A DNA stretch of 64,000 nucleotides from a virus. Shown here piece after piece: positions 2,772-39,457 of the stretch (positions are counted from its first letter, which is position 1; each line of letters starts with the position of its first letter). The DNA lies in IMG/VR virus record IMGVR_UViG_3300029106_000003, positions 1,317 to 65,316 of that record. One strand, 5' to 3'. The notes under the pieces were generated by a model. That model was not told where the DNA came from. It searched no databases and worked only from the letters and a program-made list of their open reading frames with translations. Made by a program: the position numbers and the translations under genes.

Positions 2772-2817
2772 ATCTCTTGCCTTTTTAAATATTTGTTAAA
2801 TTATAGATTGTTGACAC

Positions 2818-2880
2818 AATAAAAAACATCACGTTTCTGTTTAAAGGCTGTGAAAGCCTCGTAACATTCCCCGTGATGTT
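2818..2880 (-). terminator. Intrinsic terminator closing the lysis cassette
   Basis: Minus strand: AACATCACG ... CGTGATGTT 9-bp outer stem enclosing the inner hairpin AGGCT-TTCAC-AGCCT, followed by TTTTTTATT. Confidence 0.5.
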
Positions 2881-2965
2881 GTCTCTTGTTAGTTTTGGAA
2901 GAGCAGCAAGAGATTGAGGCTTTCCTCTTTATACTCCGAAGCCCCGGAAGGAGTCGTAAATCAAA

Positions 2966-3355
2966 TTATATCAAGAAACCCAGTCCTTTCAATTTTGTTA
3001 TCCATTTCACGATGTAAGGGAAGAGCAGCAAGACAATGCCACCGAGAGCCCACCAGCACCATCGGGGAGTCTTGTACTTTACTACCTCGACGGGGTATGG
3101 TACTTGTATGCTTTCCGTCTTGGATATATACAGCGTATCGGTTCTGTCCTTGAACCTATATATGTACTTGTATTGGAACTCCCGTATCGTGTCTCCCGAT
3201 TTCTCGATGAAAACACTGTCCCGCATGTATATGGAATCGAGCTGCACACGATTCAGATACACCGTGTCGCTCTTTGTCGTTTCCACAGGAACATACACAT
3301 GTCTGGTACAACTCGTCGCAGCCAAAAACAACAATAGGAATACGATATGTCTCAT
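2966..3355 (-). CDS. Unimolecular-spanin-like lipoprotein (N-terminal lipobox plus C-terminal TM)
   Basis: Start MRHIVFLLLFLAATSC (signal peptide and Cys lipobox); C-terminal TM WCWWALGGIVLLLFPYIV; its ATG overlaps the endolysin stop as ATGA (3352-3355). Confidence 0.6.
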   Translation of the reverse strand: MRHIVFLLLFLAATSCTRHVYVPVETTKSDTVYLNRVQLDSIYMRDSVFIEKSGDTIREFQYKYIYRFKDRTDTLYISKTESIQVPYPVEVVKYKTPRWCWWALGGIVLLLFPYIVKWITKLKGLGFLI

Positions 3356-3750
3356 AGGCTCAGTATTTGTTTCCGGTTCTTCGATGTCGACACATAAGAC
3401 ACGTGCACCCAACTGTAATTGCTCTCGTCAATCAACTGGTCGAAGGGAAGGTTATCCCGAATCAACTCGAACAGCTTCTTGTTCTCCGTCTTGCTCCCTG
3501 CCGTTATATCCGCCGCCTCGCCCCTCATGTGCTGGCTCGTTTTCGCACCACCCACAGCGGCATTGAGTTTGGAACAACGATAGCCCGAATTGACGGTTAT
3601 CGCCTTCCCGTACATCTCCCGCAGTGGGTCTAAAACATGGGTGACAAGGTTCGACAACTGGGCCGACACTTCGGTCGTCGGGGTATTGTCTATACCCAGT
3701 TTATCGGCCGTTGAACTCTTTGTGAGTTCTTTCATCGTGAAGTATTTCAT
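3352..3750 (-). CDS. Endolysin, peptidase M15 (D-Ala-D-Ala carboxypeptidase / L-Ala-D-Glu peptidase family)
   Basis: Zn-ligand pattern SQHMRGEAAD ... SWVHVS typical of Peptidase_M15_3 phage lysins. Confidence 0.85.
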   Translation of the reverse strand: MKYFTMKELTKSSTADKLGIDNTPTTEVSAQLSNLVTHVLDPLREMYGKAITVNSGYRCSKLNAAVGGAKTSQHMRGEAADITAGSKTENKKLFELIRDNLPFDQLIDESNYSWVHVSYVSTSKNRKQILSL

Positions 3751-4031
3751 ATCTCGAAGATTAAGTTTTCCATGTTGTTAATTCTGTCCGGCTCAGATAC
3801 GAGCAAATCCTCTTCCGGAAATTTTTCTTGAAATTCTTTCCATAACAGATACTCCATTTCCATGTATTCTTCACTGCCTCTTCTTATGCTTTCAGGAGAG
3901 ACCTCCACGATATGGAAGTTGGTCTGTATGTCGTAGGCATACCTGATACTTATTCCCGGTATTTTCGAGGCAATCGATTGAATCGTCTCGATGACAAAAT
4001 CCTGTACATTCTTATTCATGTCTTTCTTCAT
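3747..4031 (-). CDS. Hypothetical protein
   Basis: ORF 3747-4070; ATG MKKDMNKN at 4031 lies just downstream of terminator 4042-4073; 4-nt overlap with the endolysin start. Confidence 0.5.
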   Translation of the reverse strand: MKKDMNKNVQDFVIETIQSIASKIPGISIRYAYDIQTNFHIVEVSPESIRRGSEEYMEMEYLLWKEFQEKFPEEDLLVSEPDRINNMENLIFEI

Positions 4032-4041
4032 TTTTGGCGAC

Positions 4042-4073
4042 AAAAAAAGCGGTGACTTTTTTAGAATCACCGC
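4042..4073 (-). terminator. Rho-independent terminator
   Basis: Minus strand GCGGTGA-loop-TCACCGC followed by TTTTTTTG. Confidence 0.65.
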
Positions 4074-4156
4074 TTGTAACGAATGTATGAGAGAGTAGCC
4101 TTAGGGTTAGGCTTATCCGTTATTGAAAATGGGACAAACGTAGGCCGAAGGCATTA

Positions 4157-4345
4157 TCAATCCTCTCTCCTCAATTCATCGAGCCATTGTACTGGGTTGA
4201 CATCTTTTAGACGAGGATAAGCCTTTTCGATTAAAGAATTTAAATAACTTTCATCGAATTTTGGAGAATAATCAGCCGGTATCGGAGGTTTAGAATCCGT
4301 ATCGGACGAGTTCTGGACATAGGGGAATGAACCTTTTGTATCCAT
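4157..4345 (-). CDS. Small hypothetical protein (third gene of the PanA cassette)
   Basis: ORF 4157-4540 overlaps the TM-protein gene in another frame; only the part from MDTKGSF (4345) is non-overlapping. Confidence 0.35.
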   Translation of the reverse strand: MDTKGSFPYVQNSSDTDSKPPIPADYSPKFDESYLNSLIEKAYPRLKDVNPVQWLDELRRED

Positions 4346-4356
4346 GTGAACAATGT

Positions 4357-4704
4357 TTATTTTTTTCGGTTCGGGAAAATACCCTTTAATACGATATTGG
4401 CTAAACCTAATACATTGATAGTTGTCGTAGCCAGTAGAGATATCAATATTTCCGGTCCCAATGAAAATAATCCGATCCCGCAAAATACAAGAATGGCAAT
4501 TACTATGAATAACCATATGGGGATAATCCACATGACCCATCTGGCCAAATGTTTACGAAATTGTGTATCTTGTGAATATCGCTCCCGTATTTGTTCGGAT
4601 AAATTCTTGTCGTCTATATCGCCCAAATTTGAGTCGGGAGAAATATGGACACCATTCTCACTACGTAAATCCAAGCCGCTAAAAGAATCTTTCTGTTTAG
4701 TCAT
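4357..4704 (-). CDS. Two-TM small membrane protein; candidate PanT-type toxin
   Basis: 115 aa, hydrophobic helices WVMWIIPIWLFIVIAILVFCGIGLF and ILISLLATTTINVLGLANIVL; ATGA overlap (4701-4704) with the upstream Panacea gene. Confidence 0.6.
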   Translation of the reverse strand: MTKQKDSFSGLDLRSENGVHISPDSNLGDIDDKNLSEQIRERYSQDTQFRKHLARWVMWIIPIWLFIVIAILVFCGIGLFSLGPEILISLLATTTINVLGLANIVLKGIFPNRKK

Positions 4705-5180
4705 GCTTTGGGAGAAATTAGTGTCTTAAAATACTCTTGGATATAACTATCCGGGATTCTATCCCCCCAGCTGAATGAAGGCTGCTTAACGGTCCTATCC
4801 CACGGAGAACCGGGCTTGTGAGACCATTCCGTCAGATAGGCGGCAGTTTTAGAACCATAGCTGCCAAAGACCAGTTTCATCAGAGATTCCATTTCGGAAT
4901 CACGGGCTATTTTTTCAAGGTTTTCATCAGAAAGGGAAATTTCTGAAAAATCCTTTTTTATCAATTTATTTCGAGTGGTCGGGAAAACCGGACCATACGG
5001 CCAAGCCTGAGGGTGCTCGTTTGTCAAGCGTTCGTTCTTTACGTAAAGATATACTCCATAAGCTATATACAACAACTTTTGAAGCTTAGTCATGTTAATG
5101 AAAAACTTATTCTGGTTAGCAAACGCAATGATATAGTTTGCAACCGTAACGCTATCGTATTTATAGGTATCGCTTATCAT
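4701..5180 (-). CDS. panA: Panacea (DUF4065, SocA-like) domain antitoxin
   Basis: VANYIIAFA...MTKLQKLLYIAYG...AWPYGPVFP matches the Panacea signature; start taken at MISDTYKYD (5180), alternative ATG at 5213. Confidence 0.75.
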   Translation of the reverse strand: MISDTYKYDSVTVANYIIAFANQNKFFINMTKLQKLLYIAYGVYLYVKNERLTNEHPQAWPYGPVFPTTRNKLIKKDFSEISLSDENLEKIARDSEMESLMKLVFGSYGSKTAAYLTEWSHKPGSPWDRTVKQPSFSWGDRIPDSYIQEYFKTLISPKA

Positions 5181-5313
5181 CTTGTTGCAAAGTAACAAAA
5201 AATATCGTAACATGCAACCAATTCTTATACTTTTTTACGATAAATCAAACGGTGATTCCAAGAAGTCAAAGAACGCTTTCCCGTCGCCGGGTTATAAAAA
5301 TTCATTTTTTTCG

Positions 5314-5583
5314 TCAGGCAATCCAAACTTCGATTTGAATCACCAGCCCGCCCAGTATGGTCGCCAGCAAGTCGGCATACGACCAAGCCCCCGGCTTCTT
5401 CCACTCGTCGGCAGCCTCCTTGATACAGCCCGCTATGGCAGAGAACAGCACACAATATTCCGCCGTCGCACCTATCACGATGGCGAAGAAAGAGGCGATG
5501 ACACCTCCTGCGATAAAATGCAGCAGCTTGTCGTGGGGAATAGACAATAACAACCCTTTGATTCTCTCCAAAATTTTCTTCAT
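5314..5583 (-). CDS. Small multi-TM membrane protein; holin candidate
   Basis: 89 aa with 2-3 hydrophobic helices, located in the lysis region; holin role is positional inference only. Confidence 0.45.
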   Translation of the reverse strand: MKKILERIKGLLLSIPHDKLLHFIAGGVIASFFAIVIGATAEYCVLFSAIAGCIKEAADEWKKPGAWSYADLLATILGGLVIQIEVWIA

Positions 5584-5584
5584 A

Positions 5585-6190
5585 TTATTCGTTATTTAAT
5601 CGGTGATAAAAATCGAGCTTGATACGGTCATAGACAGAAAATACATTGGTTTTAGCCCTGTCATCGTTCACCGTATGGGCATATATCTCGTTCTCGACAA
5701 CCTCTGCCACCCAGTCTATCCATTCAGGATTGGTATAACATGAAAGACGTTTACCCCGATAGGTAAAGTAGTCGAAACGGCTGTTCCTGTCCTCGTACTG
5801 GTTCGTGAGATTTCCGATAATTTTTTCATGCGTCCTATTCCTGTCGGATATATGGTTTTCCTTCCTAACTTGTTCGATAATTTCCAAAACCCGTCTGGCG
5901 GAAAGGTTGAAAAATTCACTCGTCATGTTCTTTATTCGAAGCTGCGTTTCCGGTCTAAGACCTTCCGATATGTCGGACAACATGTTATTCTGGTCGTTCG
6001 TTTTTTCGATAAGCTCTTTCAGGGATTCGCCGTAATCCTCCATACTCTTGGTGATAATCGATTTGAACCACTTGAAGCAGGCCACCATCATCATGGCCGA
6101 CAACACCAAGAAGAATGCTGCGGTCATCACCAAGAACCCCTGTTCGCTTATCCCTCTGGCTACCTCCGTAGCCTCGTTTATCCCTCCCAT
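5585..6190 (-). CDS. N-terminally membrane-anchored hypothetical protein
   Basis: TM FLVMTAAFFLVLSAMMMVACF near the N-terminus; 1-nt spacing to neighbouring genes. Confidence 0.6.
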   Translation of the reverse strand: MGGINEATEVARGISEQGFLVMTAAFFLVLSAMMMVACFKWFKSIITKSMEDYGESLKELIEKTNDQNNMLSDISEGLRPETQLRIKNMTSEFFNLSARRVLEIIEQVRKENHISDRNRTHEKIIGNLTNQYEDRNSRFDYFTYRGKRLSCYTNPEWIDWVAEVVENEIYAHTVNDDRAKTNVFSVYDRIKLDFYHRLNNE

Positions 6191-6191
6191 A

Positions 6192-6578
6192 TCAATGTTT
6201 CTGTTTTTCGATTAACAATCTAGCTTCTCCTTTGCAGGATTCCGCATAGGCGTTATAAGCCTCGAACTCCTCTGCTTTCGTATCTCTTTGCCGAAGTATC
6301 GCCAACTCCTCCGACAATGTATATTTCCGACGAATCAATCCGTTTACCGTTTCTCCGTAGTCTATTTGGGCAGGTGGTGTTCCCGTGTCGTCCTCCGTCG
6401 CTTCCGGTGCTTCCTCGTACTCATAGACTATCGCCCCGTTCCGGTAATACATCACGGGTATTTTTCCGGGTATCTCCTCGGGAGATGGGATAGAATCTAT
6501 TCGTATGAATCCTTCTATCAGGGTTTCGCCATAATAAATATTAGTGACTCTTTCGTCGTATATTTTAATTTGTATCAT
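6192..6578 (-). CDS. Hypothetical protein downstream of the tail fibre (possible fibre accessory protein)
   Basis: ORF track; overlaps the fibre gene by 14 nt; function is positional guess. Confidence 0.55.
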   Translation of the reverse strand: MIQIKIYDERVTNIYYGETLIEGFIRIDSIPSPEEIPGKIPVMYYRNGAIVYEYEEAPEATEDDTGTPPAQIDYGETVNGLIRRKYTLSEELAILRQRDTKAEEFEAYNAYAESCKGEARLLIEKQKH

Positions 6579-29376: not shown

Positions 29377-31464
29377 TTACTCCTTTCTAGGTTCGTTACC
29401 ATATTTCTGTACAAATGCTTTTAAAATCTCATCTAAATTTCCACGAATACCTGAATCTTGAATATAGTGAAGTTTACCAACGCATCTTTCATGTAACTTG
29501 AATACTCCCCGATACTTCATACTTACGGGCTTATCAGTAAACACAGAAGTGGCAATTATACCACATTCATGCTTGTATCTTATATTCAATTCCTCTTTAA
29601 ATTCAGTTGAAAGCACACCTGTAATAAGTAATCTGCTTAGCTTTGGTATAGTATGGTCTATCACAAAATCTGACTTCATCCAAACTGCATCCATGCCGTA
29701 TTTGCTGACTTTTAAGAAATCAAACATACAAGCTCCAAATACGTAATTATCTAAGAACCATAAATAGCAGAATGGAGCCGAGCCTAATACTATACCTTTC
29801 TTCAAATATATCATACGTAGATAATCTATCTCTGACATAGAAGCACGCATAAAACGAAATTTGCTATTTTCAGAAATGGAATAATCATCTGGTAAACGTT
29901 TGTACTTTAATGGAGTAATAGCACGTTTATTAAAACTGCTATCACCAGTACTACTTACATTGGAATAAATATAAGTTCTCTGGTCTTTGAATACCTCTCT
30001 GCGTCCCATGAAACCATGTTGCGACAATGCCATGTAATTCACCTGCTCTTCATCTATCTCAGAATATTTTGTACGGATTCTTTCTTGCCAACCGAAATCA
30101 TTCAACAAGAAGCGTTGTAAAGCATTGCTTGTAGCTTTCATACCGGAATGAAACTCATTCTGATAAATCAAAATATCATTTTCATTGCAATTAAGTATAG
30201 CATCCGAAATATCAGCACAATACAGAACTTCAATGTTCTTTGATTTCAGATTATCAACGAGTTTCTGATAACGTTCTGTGTATTTCTTCTTGTAGTAATC
30301 TAAACGGGACACGAAGTCATCATATAGTGACTTATGGTAAATATCCTGTGAGTTCTTATGCTTTTTTATGGCATTGAAAAGATGAATAACAGCTACCATT
30401 TCGGAAGGATTGTCCGACTGTAAATCCATGAAACTATACTCGTCGTTGAAACGTAGCTCTTTTATCTCTCCCTTAATAGCTTTATACATAAGATAGATAA
30501 AATACTCTTTCGTATATACCTTTATCTCACGGTTAGTAAGCACTTGTTCTATATCCATGTAGTATGAGTTTACCACATGGGCGACATCAAATCTTGAAGC
30601 CTCTTTTTTGATGAAAGAAAGCATCCGGTTTGACTTCTTGAACATAGAGCCTACTACCGTAACATTATCCGAGTGTTCTGCCGCCCAAAGTAGCGGTTTA
30701 TGTCTTTGGGGAACTTTGGAATAGTCAATATGAAACACCTCAAGACACTTATCAATTGTGGAGAGTTGCTTATACTCTTCTATATTTTCATGCAGGTAGG
30801 CATACTCTACAAATGAATACATGAATTTGATTGTCTCCAATACTTTATCAAAGTTCCATGAACTGTTGAAGATTCTGAACTCTGCCGTGCCAATCTTGGC
30901 AATGGAACATAAATTGAGCCAATACCTGATATGTCCCCTGTCTGAACCATTGTTGAATACTTTTAGTAGGTTGTCGATATTATCAGCTTCTAGCACACGT
31001 TTCACCACATCATATGGAGGGCTTGGCACGAGGTATTTTGTTTCCCACCACTCGGCTATATCGAATATCCGCTTGATTGGATATGCTGTATAGTAGGAAA
31101 GGACAAACATACGCTTGATAACATTCAAATCCATATCTTTGATATACAGATGTGCGTCAAAGCCTTCATTCCACATGAGGTAACTTCCTGCATCTTTCAT
31201 TGTTTTGATGAAGCCTTTCAACTCCTGTAAGTCTTCCACACAATAATGGTATGGACGAGTGTTTATCTCGCCACCAAATTGACCGTGGTGTGTGACAGCC
31301 GAACCGTCCGAGTTATTCATCATGGTTAGCTTGTTGTCCGTCCATTTATAACCGACTGGAAGGGAAATGCATTGTTTGTCTCCATCGGCAAACTCCAATT
31401 CCATGCCAAACGTGCGGTTGGCAATGTAATCAATCCACGGCTTATCTATATTCATGTTCTGCAT
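29377..31464 (-). CDS. Large protein with an N-terminal amidoligase (Amidoligase_2, glutamine-synthetase-like) domain and ~450 aa of unknown function
   Basis: FGMELEF, GGEINTRP and GTAEFRIF motifs in the first ~230 aa; remainder unrecognised. Confidence 0.55.
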   Translation of the reverse strand: MQNMNIDKPWIDYIANRTFGMELEFADGDKQCISLPVGYKWTDNKLTMMNNSDGSAVTHHGQFGGEINTRPYHYCVEDLQELKGFIKTMKDAGSYLMWNEGFDAHLYIKDMDLNVIKRMFVLSYYTAYPIKRIFDIAEWWETKYLVPSPPYDVVKRVLEADNIDNLLKVFNNGSDRGHIRYWLNLCSIAKIGTAEFRIFNSSWNFDKVLETIKFMYSFVEYAYLHENIEEYKQLSTIDKCLEVFHIDYSKVPQRHKPLLWAAEHSDNVTVVGSMFKKSNRMLSFIKKEASRFDVAHVVNSYYMDIEQVLTNREIKVYTKEYFIYLMYKAIKGEIKELRFNDEYSFMDLQSDNPSEMVAVIHLFNAIKKHKNSQDIYHKSLYDDFVSRLDYYKKKYTERYQKLVDNLKSKNIEVLYCADISDAILNCNENDILIYQNEFHSGMKATSNALQRFLLNDFGWQERIRTKYSEIDEEQVNYMALSQHGFMGRREVFKDQRTYIYSNVSSTGDSSFNKRAITPLKYKRLPDDYSISENSKFRFMRASMSEIDYLRMIYLKKGIVLGSAPFCYLWFLDNYVFGACMFDFLKVSKYGMDAVWMKSDFVIDHTIPKLSRLLITGVLSTEFKEELNIRYKHECGIIATSVFTDKPVSMKYRGVFKLHERCVGKLHYIQDSGIRGNLDEILKAFVQKYGNEPRKE

Positions 31465-33279: not shown

Positions 33280-33426
33280 AAATTCAATCATTCTTCAAGC
33301 TACTTACAAGAACACTTATGCAATTCTTCGGCTTCTTTCAGTCGTGTCAGATAGCAATTTCTATCACCCCGTAAACTGCACAAGCTTTAATGTTCTTGCT
33401 TTTGCTTATCGCTACTATAAGGGTTG

Positions 33427-33496
33427 AGCGGAAACAGGGAATCGAACCCCACTCTTTGGTTGGAATGCCAACGCTCTGCCGATGAGCTATTTCCGC
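33427..33496 (-). tRNA. tRNA-like gene with glycine identity set and an apparent 8-nt anticodon loop (CAUUCCAA)
   Basis: Acceptor GCGGAAA/TTTCCGC, D arm GCTC-ATCGGCA-GAGC, T arm TGGGG-TTCGATT-CCCTG, discriminator T. The anticodon arm pairs only as TTGG/CCAA around CATTCCAA. Confidence 0.6.
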
Positions 33497-33574
33497 AATA
33501 TGGGCAGCCTGCAAACCGTTTATCAGAATTTCCACTGCCCTTCCTTGTACTTCGGTCGTTATTTCTTATCTCTG

Positions 33575-33647
33575 AGGTTGAAGTGGGATTCAAACCCACG
33601 AATAACGGTTTTGCAGACCGTTGCGTTAATCACTTCGCCATTCAACC
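33575..33647 (-). tRNA. tRNA-Cys(GCA)
   Basis: Acceptor GGTTGAA/TTCAACC, anticodon arm ACGGT-CTGCAAA-ACCGT, T arm GTGGG-TTTGAAT-CCCAC, discriminator U73. Confidence 0.85.
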
Positions 33648-38695: not shown

Positions 38696-39457
38696 ATGAA
38701 CGAGGAAATAACAAAGCTATTACTTCAATGCGACACGTTGAAAGCCCGTTTGTTGGGGCTGCGCCCATTACCACCGGATGCCCTGCAAAAGATAGAGAAT
38801 GCGTTTGCCATTGAATACACCTATGAAAGCAACCGGATCGAGGGAAATACGCTCACACTGCAAGAAACGGAGTTAGTAGTGAACGAGGGGGTTACTATCG
38901 CCGGAAAGTCAATGCGGGAACACCTTGAAGCGATTAACCACGTTGAAGCGATAGACTACATAAAGGACTTTGCAAAGGGAGGTATGGAAATATCGGAGCG
39001 CACAATCAAGGAAATACACGCTATTGTGCTACATGGCATAGACAGAGAGAATGCCGGACGTTATCGGGGCGTGCCTGTTATGATTTCGGGAAGTACACAT
39101 GTCCCTCCACAGCCGTATTTGATACAACCACAAATGGAGGCTTTTATGACAAGGTTTTCCGGAATGGAGGAGCAGGGCATTCACCCGGTGCTCATTGCGG
39201 CTTATCTTCATGATGAGTTGGTACGAATACACCCGTTTATAGACGGGAACGGGCGCACATCTCGGCTTCTGATGAATCTATACTTACTCCGCAACGGTTA
39301 TACGCTGGTAAATCTCAAAGGCAGCAACGAGGACAAAATAAGCTATTACAAGGCACTGGAAGCCTCTCATACGGAGAACAATCCGGCAGAGTTCCAAAAG
39401 GTCGTTATACGGGCTGAAATAGAATCTTTAAGCCGGTATCTCTCAATTGTAGGATAG
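38696..39457 (+). CDS. Fic-domain protein (class II, with N-terminal inhibitory motif)
   Basis: HPFIDGNGRTSR active-site motif; SNRIEG matches the (S/T)xxxE(G/N) auto-inhibition motif. Confidence 0.85.
   Translation: MNEEITKLLLQCDTLKARLLGLRPLPPDALQKIENAFAIEYTYESNRIEGNTLTLQETELVVNEGVTIAGKSMREHLEAINHVEAIDYIKDFAKGGMEISERTIKEIHAIVLHGIDRENAGRYRGVPVMISGSTHVPPQPYLIQPQMEAFMTRFSGMEEQGIHPVLIAAYLHDELVRIHPFIDGNGRTSRLLMNLYLLRNGYTLVNLKGSNEDKISYYKALEASHTENNPAEFQKVVIRAEIESLSRYLSIVG

Follow-up and report, generated by a model that had tools for sequence, protein, structure and literature searches.

We analyzed a 64,000-nucleotide (nt) stretch of viral DNA (IMG/VR record IMGVR_UViG_3300029106_000003, positions 1,317 to 65,316), hereafter the window, whose own numbering is used throughout. 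The subject is a pair of overlapping genes in its lysis region: panA, which encodes a Panacea-domain protein, and a candidate panT, which encodes a 115-amino-acid (aa) protein with two transmembrane (TM) helices. Every gene between positions 1 and 18,000 lies on the minus strand. The panA stop codon (4703-4701) and the start codon of the 115-aa open reading frame (ORF; 4704-4702) share the sequence ATGA, which gives an overlap of 4 nt. An earlier, sequence-only reading had described a clear Panacea/DUF4065 protein, an ATGA-overlapping 115-aa protein with two TM helices, a good terminator (4042-4073), and the separation of a holin candidate from the endolysin and spanin-like genes by this unit. 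All of these features were found, all on the minus strand (Table 1).

The panA ORF matched the Pfam family SocA_Panacea (PF13274) with E = 9.8e-14 (52.7 bits, with a cut-off of 25.7) and phrog_1281 with 7.6e-31. The NCBIfam model SocA_antitoxin (NF047745) aligned over residues 19-164 and gave 88.8 bits, under its equivalog cut-off of 190 bits. PanA consists of the Panacea (DUF4065/SocA-like) domain alone, with no extra N-terminal domain. PADLOC returned no match for PanA, and a sequence search against solved structures returned only chance-level matches for both PanA and the TM family. The longest panA ORF encodes 170 aa, and the alternative start ATG 5180 encodes 159 aa. The latter is probably the true start: alignments of the family start at this codon, and a promoter-like box stands 7 nt ahead of it.

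The hydrophobic helices of the 115-aa protein occupy residues 57-75 and 86-104 by hydropathy, in agreement with the two-TM description. The AlphaFold2 model is a helical hairpin (residues 35-76 and 84-109) preceded by a disordered segment (residues 1-34). The protein thus begins with an acidic disordered segment; a conserved basic amphipathic helix then continues into TM1 (35-76), and a short loop connects it to TM2 (84-109). Residues 1-52 include 8 basic and 10 acidic residues, and the predicted topology is N-in/C-in. In the family alignment, TM2 carries the conserved motif LLATTTxNVLGLAxIVLKG, and the signature of the whole family is RYxQDTxxRxxLxxWV–TM1–loop–LLATTTxNVLGLAxIVLKGxF. Forty-six relatives, each 100-130 aa long, were detected by sequence search, and none had a Pfam domain or a name. 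When a profile was run against 1.84 billion cluster representatives, 2,519 members of the family were recovered at E ≤ 1e-3, and 590 at E ≤ 1e-10. Because of this strong pattern of family conservation, we regard the TM protein as a real protein. No Pfam or NCBIfam model matched the family above threshold. The 115-aa protein itself belonged to no curated family; its weak matches were to DUF2975 (7e-4, under the cut-off), to phrog_13343 (function unknown) and, with PADLOC, to CARF_TM (0.0036). A public record labels the protein 'Sporulation protein YhaL', a label that is spurious.

The association of the two genes extended far beyond this lineage. In 22 of 24 scorable unrelated loci, the gene immediately before that of a TM relative (25-56% identity) was a Panacea gene. 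In four unrelated phage or prophage neighborhoods, homologs with 50-56% identity followed a Panacea gene immediately: among capsid and portal genes, upstream of a tape-measure gene, in a replication/recombination module, and beside a portal gene and a Gp49/HTH pair. A further viral contig (L035) carried a Panacea–TM pair in its early-gene region. Homologous pairs overlapped by 11-29 nt or stood a few nucleotides apart, and their flanking genes were wholly different between contexts. The TM homologs of L115-L122 and L035 each had a Panacea gene directly upstream. In the nine other phage or prophage neighborhoods compared, no homologous pair stood beside lysis genes.

A scan of one genome per species yielded 22 TM-family loci from Bacteroidota, a Lachnospiraceae metagenome-assembled genome, Thermodesulfobacteriota, Alphaproteobacteria (Micavibrio, Rickettsiales, and Deianiraea), and Dyella. 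Of 18 upstream proteins tested from these loci, 17 were Panacea proteins. The remaining one was an ImmA/Peptidase_M78 protein in Candidatus Deianiraea vastatrix, where the TM domain lies directly downstream of the corresponding gene (L142, 2324-3183), a partner swap like that of the RosmerTA systems discussed below. Natural single-chain fusions of PanA with the TM protein also occur (P0146, 263 aa; P0193, 258 aa, on three contigs). Conservation of the pair across phyla and contexts supports the earlier proposal that the Panacea gene has a small membrane protein as its cognate partner. In another protein (P0175, 204 aa), a different N-terminal domain is fused to the TM domain.

We collected 79 viral contigs through the neighboring 201-aa gene, which makes the sample independent of the cargo, and mapped all local proteins onto each. 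Occupancy of the slot between the holin candidate and the endolysin was scored in the 76 contigs that contained both genes. The PanA–TM pair was the most frequent occupant (30 contigs), followed by a trio of an HEPN protein, an orf94-like protein, and a SecB-like protein (11 contigs). The slot was empty in 10 contigs, with the holin candidate and endolysin 24-46 nt apart, and held only orf94 in 8. The other occupants were an NYN-domain protein (6 contigs), an IrrE/Peptidase_M78 protein with a PIN-like DUF4411 protein (5 contigs), and a 269-aa protein with (2 contigs) or without (2 contigs) a PIN protein; 2 contigs had only the cassette arms.

The PanA–TM DNA was 99.5-100% identical in 27 of the 30 loci. 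Across the same loci, the 201-aa gene fell to 83-85% identity or below detection, and the endolysin gene fell to 91%. A uniform cassette between diverged flanks indicates either exchange among diverged phages or much stronger constraint on the cassette than on its flanks. Both ORFs were intact in all 35 viral loci with the TM gene, and the TM protein was 99-100% identical at the amino-acid level in 32 of the 33 viral loci with a full-length gene.

The cassette (5300-4036, 1.27 kb) is bracketed by a 9-bp direct repeat, AAAAATGAA. Empty sites hold a single copy of this repeat (L042 reads ...GACGAAAAAAATGAAGAATGGATATG). Positions 5600..5247/5234 of the window aligned at 96-98% to the loci with NYN, HEPN/SecB, M78/DUF4411, or 269-aa cargo, and the alignment of empty and orf94-only loci to the window ended at 5301. 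Presence or absence of the pair and swapping of cargo at exactly this junction in 76 sister phages make the cassette an ordinary accessory module and not lysis machinery. The suggestion that the unit is a moron was supported by the spacing of 24 nt between the flanking genes at an empty site, the AAAAATGAA repeats, the cassette's own terminator, and the exchange of cargo. Other rearrangements were also seen: in L083, orf94 has been deleted between two ACATG repeats, and L048 holds the arms and a promoter box without a cargo gene. Insertion and deletion mediated by microhomology drive the evolution of the slot.

The exact 115-aa protein recurred in 1,457 public-assembly blocks, with contig sizes of 230-378 kb and of more than 1 Mb. 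Approximately 8 kb past the lysis genes, those contigs carry bacterial genes (YceG and DnaB), or an integrase and bacterial genes. As had been supposed from the sequence, the element is a prophage integrated in a bacterial genome. Matches to known sequences were short (83-96% identity), to an unannotated 5-kb record and to Bacteroides phages. The window also holds a tape-measure gene and an SPP1-type portal gene, and the carrier is a temperate gut Bacteroidales siphovirus.

The stem at 4075-4047 is the only terminator-like site on the minus strand within 2800-6400. For the promoter, 9 of the 21 homologous pairs from elsewhere had an exact TAnnTTTG box in the 60 nt that precede panA, where chance would give 0.036 per window (P ~2e-8). 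At the equivalent position, the window has TTACTTTG, with one mismatch, which hints at a 159-aa PanA and at a possible autonomous promoter. A sigma-70 promoter scan is uninformative for Bacteroidetes.

Table 1. Features of the lysis region and of the PanA–TM cassette (all on the minus strand)
Feature	Position	Strand	Basis or remark
201-aa protein, N-terminal TM helix	5585-6190	-	phrog_19698; precedes holin candidate
89-aa holin candidate, 2-3 hydrophobic segments	5314-5583	-	hydropathy; stop codon 5316-5314
Left AAAAATGAA copy, left edge of cassette	5301-5309	-	directly past stop codon of holin candidate
Left arm	5247-5300	-	common to all cargo-bearing variants; absent from empty sites
Promoter-like Bacteroidetes -7 box	5188-5195	-	TTACTTTG; differs from TAnnTTTG at one position; 7 nt ahead of ATG 5180
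panA, Panacea-domain ORF	4701-5213	-	Pfam and PHROG matches
Candidate panT, 115-aa two-TM ORF	4357-4704	-	hydropathy, AlphaFold2
orf62, 62-aa ORF, chimeric remnant	4157-4345	-	alignment to L099
Right arm, with terminator and right repeat	4015-4092	-	common to all cargo variants; absent from empty sites
Intrinsic terminator	stem 4075-4047, T-run to ~4041	-	11-bp stem and T-run
Right AAAAATGAA copy	4027-4035	-	inside right arm
orf94, 94-aa ORF	3747-4031	-	ATGA overlap with endolysin gene
Endolysin, Peptidase_M15_3	3352-3750	-	Pfam E = 2.2e-24; PHROG 'endolysin' 1e-40
Spanin-like protein, overlapping endolysin	2966-3355	-	lipoprotein-type N-terminus and C-terminal TM helix

Two small ORFs adjoin the pair. 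The possible third ORF noted earlier, orf62, does exist, but its status as a gene was not upheld. Its last 39 codons (codons 24-62, 4273-4157) correspond to the 3′ end of the 269-aa gene that occupies the slot elsewhere, with 92% amino-acid identity to the 269-aa protein of L099, which ends ...DYSPKFDENYLNSLIEKAYPRLKDVDPVQWLDELRRED; at the DNA level, positions 4273..4015 of the window align to L099 at 94%. No Pfam or PHROG family matched orf62, and it is absent from a variant PanA–TM cassette with 87% identity (L033/L112). It is a chimeric recombination scar and probably no functional third gene. A three-gene system was rejected because orf62 is chimeric and dispensable.

The other ORF, orf94, is translationally coupled to the endolysin gene through ATGA. 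It was present in 13 of the 30 sister loci that carry the pair and in 8 loci without other cargo. We rejected it as a part of the module because it varies independently of the cargo. An orf94-like copy (64-65% identity, with a C-terminal extension of approximately 40 aa) is the middle gene of the HEPN/orf94-like/SecB-like trio in 11 sister phages (e.g., L039, L107, and L079). The trio looks like a toxin–antitoxin–chaperone module. Since an orf94-like protein lies inside it, the orf94 of the window may be an orphan antitoxin-like gene kept beside the endolysin gene.

The arrangement of the pair resembles that of the PanAT toxin–antitoxin (TA) systems. The in-silico criteria for PanAT (Kurata et al. 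2022, PMC8832971) include a Panacea partner, genes no more than 100 nt apart, and no operon of more than three genes by conservation of neighborhood. The pair in the window has a Panacea domain, a 4-nt overlap (4701-4704), conserved pairing, and no longer operon. It has panA first, as in the commoner PanAT arrangement (PMC8832971). PanA proteins elsewhere bind and neutralize very different toxins. The membrane PanTs of Shiga toxin-producing Escherichia coli (STEC) O31 (cluster T3, WP_000019185.1), Bartonella apis (T12, WP_077993242.1), and Helicobacter sp. (T4) arrest all macromolecular synthesis and depolarize or permeabilize the membrane (PMC8832971). Like these validated pairs, the pair in the window has a Panacea-only ('noNTD') antitoxin encoded first, a small toxin gene that overlaps or abuts it, and a mobile distribution across phyla. 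The charged N-terminus and C-terminal TM helices of the protein also recall the published description of the T3/T12 PanTs. Unlike the three of them, which were scored 'NotPhage', it lies in the lysis region of a prophage as an exchangeable cassette. We consider it likely that the two genes form a PanAT-type, TA-like cassette, which a temperate Bacteroidales siphovirus carries as a moron.

Assignment to a toxin cluster was approached through described architecture. Cluster T3 includes Parabacteroides, Porphyromonas, and Butyricimonas entries (PMC8832971). Because T3 has Bacteroidales entries and the same described architecture, we lean toward placing the putative toxin with the validated clusters T3/T12, by analogy of architecture as described. 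Cluster T1, which has Bacteroides and Prevotella entries, was rejected because it is of the mRNase type (Kurata Dataset S1). The 'B. choladocola PanT D11' control in the NetFlax paper is probably the B. apis T12 toxin. No E. coli member was among the profile-search matches listed for the TM family, and tblastn with the TM proteins as queries gave no match in the collections of phages and plasmids. Non-TM partners accompanied PanA in the E. coli loci found through plasmids and E. coli genomes. A literature search by accession, made for the placement of the toxin cluster, returned the source paper only.

Several observations weigh against a PanAT-type cassette expressed in the lysogen. Toxicity of the TM protein and its neutralization by PanA are supposed by analogy with assayed pairs. 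The AlphaFold2 confidence for the 115-aa protein was moderate overall (pLDDT 68.7) and higher over the helices (82-90), and a Foldseek search against viral structures gave no match at E ≤ 0.001. No terminator lies between the holin candidate and panA within the 2800-6400 scan, so the pair is probably co-transcribed with the late lysis genes. A scan of the window for exact TAnnTTTG found no overall enrichment and no exact box upstream of panA; with a single-mismatch box in the window, expression in the lysogen is an assumption. In addition, E. coli assays showed no toxicity for several of the predicted PanTs, among them a membrane PanT from C. difficile (Kurata et al. 2022, PMC8832971).

This last point also favors a conserved two-gene unit that is not a TA system, for example, a non-toxic superinfection-exclusion or signaling membrane protein with PanA as chaperone, adaptor, or sensor. 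Conservation of the pair and the fusions prove only functional linkage, approximately half of DUF4065 proteins lie outside TA-like loci (PMC8832971), and Ernits et al. propose Panacea as a sensor and not a neutralizing surface (PMC10440598). However, the architecture agrees with the published PanAT criteria, three of four assayed membrane PanT pairs were toxic, depolarizing, and neutralized, and all other cargos of the slot are TA-like. The occurrence of the TM domain with an ImmA-type antitoxin elsewhere is also typical of swappable toxic effectors. We therefore regard a non-TA unit as unlikely.

The position of the pair had also raised the idea that the TM protein was co-opted for lysis timing as a holin, antiholin, or holin partner, with PanA as its cytoplasmic regulator. 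The pair does sit between the holin candidate and the endolysin, and late transcripts should include it. AbiZ, an Abi protein in the membrane of Lactococcus, makes the holin clock run faster, and S21-type pinholins belong to class II. The TM protein is likewise a small two-TM protein beside lysis genes, with a charged C-terminus and a predicted N-in/C-in topology as in class II holins, and a membrane toxin could synergize with a holin. A few annotated holins appeared among the non-significant fold matches (E ~4). Unlike holins and antiholins, however, the protein matched no Pfam or PHROG lysis family, the fold search gave nothing at E ≤ 0.001, and it is not conserved with lysis genes. Forty-six of the 76 close relatives have the same holin candidate, endolysin, and spanin without the pair, ten of them with a gap of only 24-46 nt. 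The slot alternatively holds soluble cargo (NYN, HEPN/SecB, M78/DUF4411, and PIN), homologous pairs lie away from lysis genes in the nine further phage or prophage neighborhoods compared, and the TM family is paired with Panacea in the genomes of Rickettsiales, Dyella, and others. Co-option into lysis was thus not supported, and we judge it very improbable. A side effect on lysis is possible, either from the toxin or from the terminator that now lies upstream of the endolysin gene.

That the cassette is a decaying passenger, a non-functional recombination relic like orf62, is barely credible: the adjoining orf62 is demonstrably a gene fragment and the slot has deletion derivatives (the arms-only L048 and the orf94 deletion of L083), but both ORFs are intact in every viral locus with the TM gene, the TM protein is nearly invariant there and recurs exactly in public assemblies, the variant cassette with 87% identity (L112) keeps both frames open, and residues invariant across the family are kept. 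Of the sequence-only interpretation, PanA with a membrane partner as a moron stands; the holin or antiholin role was not supported, and the third ORF is a scar.

Three known types of system help to place the PanAT-type cassette. SocAB of Caulobacter crescentus is a type VI TA system whose SocA is the founding Panacea protein. PanA is of the same fold family, and the SocA model aligns over most of its length as given above. The score is far below that of an equivalog (88.8 vs. 190 bits), and the partner is a two-TM protein rather than the SocB replication inhibitor. The module is no SocAB equivalog, and neutralization through a proteolytic adaptor is not implied. In phage morons, as in the HK97/lambda paradigm, a promoter, a gene, and a terminator lie between conserved genes. 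The cassette shares with morons and prophage defense hotspots its presence or absence among collinear phages, its own terminator, and TA or defense cargo; the promoter-like box may be a further likeness. Unlike classic morons, it has conserved arms that are common to at least five unrelated cargos, together with the 9-bp flanking repeat, which indicates a defined exchange site within the lysis operon and not a one-off insertion. RosmerTA systems combine an ImmA/IrrE-protease antitoxin with diverse toxins, and RmrT D5 of the Gordonia phage Kita depolarizes the membrane and defends against phages (PMC10440598). The cassette is similarly phage-borne, with a C-terminally membrane-anchored putative toxin; the TM domain follows ImmA/Peptidase_M78 in Deianiraea, and M78 with DUF4411 is an alternative cargo of the slot. 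It differs in that its antitoxin is Panacea and not ImmA, and its likeness to RmrT D5 is one of general architecture only.

If the PanAT-type reading holds, transcription of the cassette in the lysogen would begin at its own promoter-like box, both proteins would be made, and the terminator would shield the endolysin and spanin genes from cassette transcription. The TM protein would enter the inner membrane as an N-in/C-in helical hairpin, where it may oligomerize through the polar invariant residues of TM2 (TTT-N) and depolarize or permeabilize the membrane. PanA would bind the conserved basic helix (EQxxxRYxQDTxxRxxL) beside TM1 on the cytoplasmic side and hold the toxin inactive, as PanA does in the validated pairs. 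The toxin would be freed once PanA is lost or inactivated, be it upon superinfection by another phage, for which PanA has been proposed as a sensor, or upon loss of the prophage. The outcome would be abortive infection, prophage stabilization, or post-segregational killing.

A bolder proposal is that the junction is a dedicated slot for exchange of defense and TA genes whose placement is itself functional. Without a terminator between the holin candidate and the slot, late transcription in the phage's lytic cycle would yield cargo toxins as well. A late-made, PanA-controlled toxin could then act with the resident holin, accelerating killing or causing AbiZ-like premature lysis of the superinfected lysogen, and the TM protein would define a large family (~2,500 clusters at 50% identity) without a Pfam match, paired with Panacea or ImmA. 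We consider this combined proposal a long shot.

The 89-aa protein had no match to a holin family in the family searches and therefore stays a holin candidate, and the spanin-like protein had no Pfam or PHROG family match. In L146 and L152, a homing-endonuclease-like gene (HNH_3/HTH, 263 aa) lies between the endolysin and spanin-like genes. The lysis region of some sister prophages thereby varies at a second junction, and such an insertion explains the endolysin–spanin gaps in L003, L011, and L043.

Elsewhere in the window, an HSDR_N-domain protein (resembling the N-terminus of restriction enzymes) followed by a 164-aa ORF lies on the plus strand at 18423-20074, between the tail genes and a tRNA-Gly gene (20805-20876), and a Fic/DOC-family protein is encoded on the plus strand at 38696-39457. 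Both plus-strand loci are candidate defense or toxin morons. On the minus strand, a 695-aa protein (29377-31464) in a structural or early region has an unusual fusion of an Amidoligase_2 domain with a phage GNAT-like domain. A tRNA-like gene with a two-base anticodon left undetermined by ARAGORN (33426-33496, minus strand) adjoins a tRNA-Cys gene (33574-33647).

That prophages carry TA modules as morons and have variable hotspots is already well known. The novelty of the present case is descriptive and consists of a very prevalent gut-prophage member, a large putative toxin family without a Pfam or NCBIfam match above threshold, and a defined exchange slot in the lysis region. The TM family is unnamed, its partner and architecture are strongly conserved, and it could be named and modeled. 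For the region, we propose the annotation 'Panacea-domain antitoxin / putative membrane PanT toxin / gene remnant'. Near-isogenic prophages whose slot is empty or holds one of at least five TA-like cargos constitute a natural experiment, in which the function of the cargo in defense, addiction, or lysis is testable. With the exact TM protein in 1,457 assembly blocks, the pair ranks among the commoner TA-like modules found in human-gut Bacteroidales prophages, whose TA and defense biology has barely been studied.

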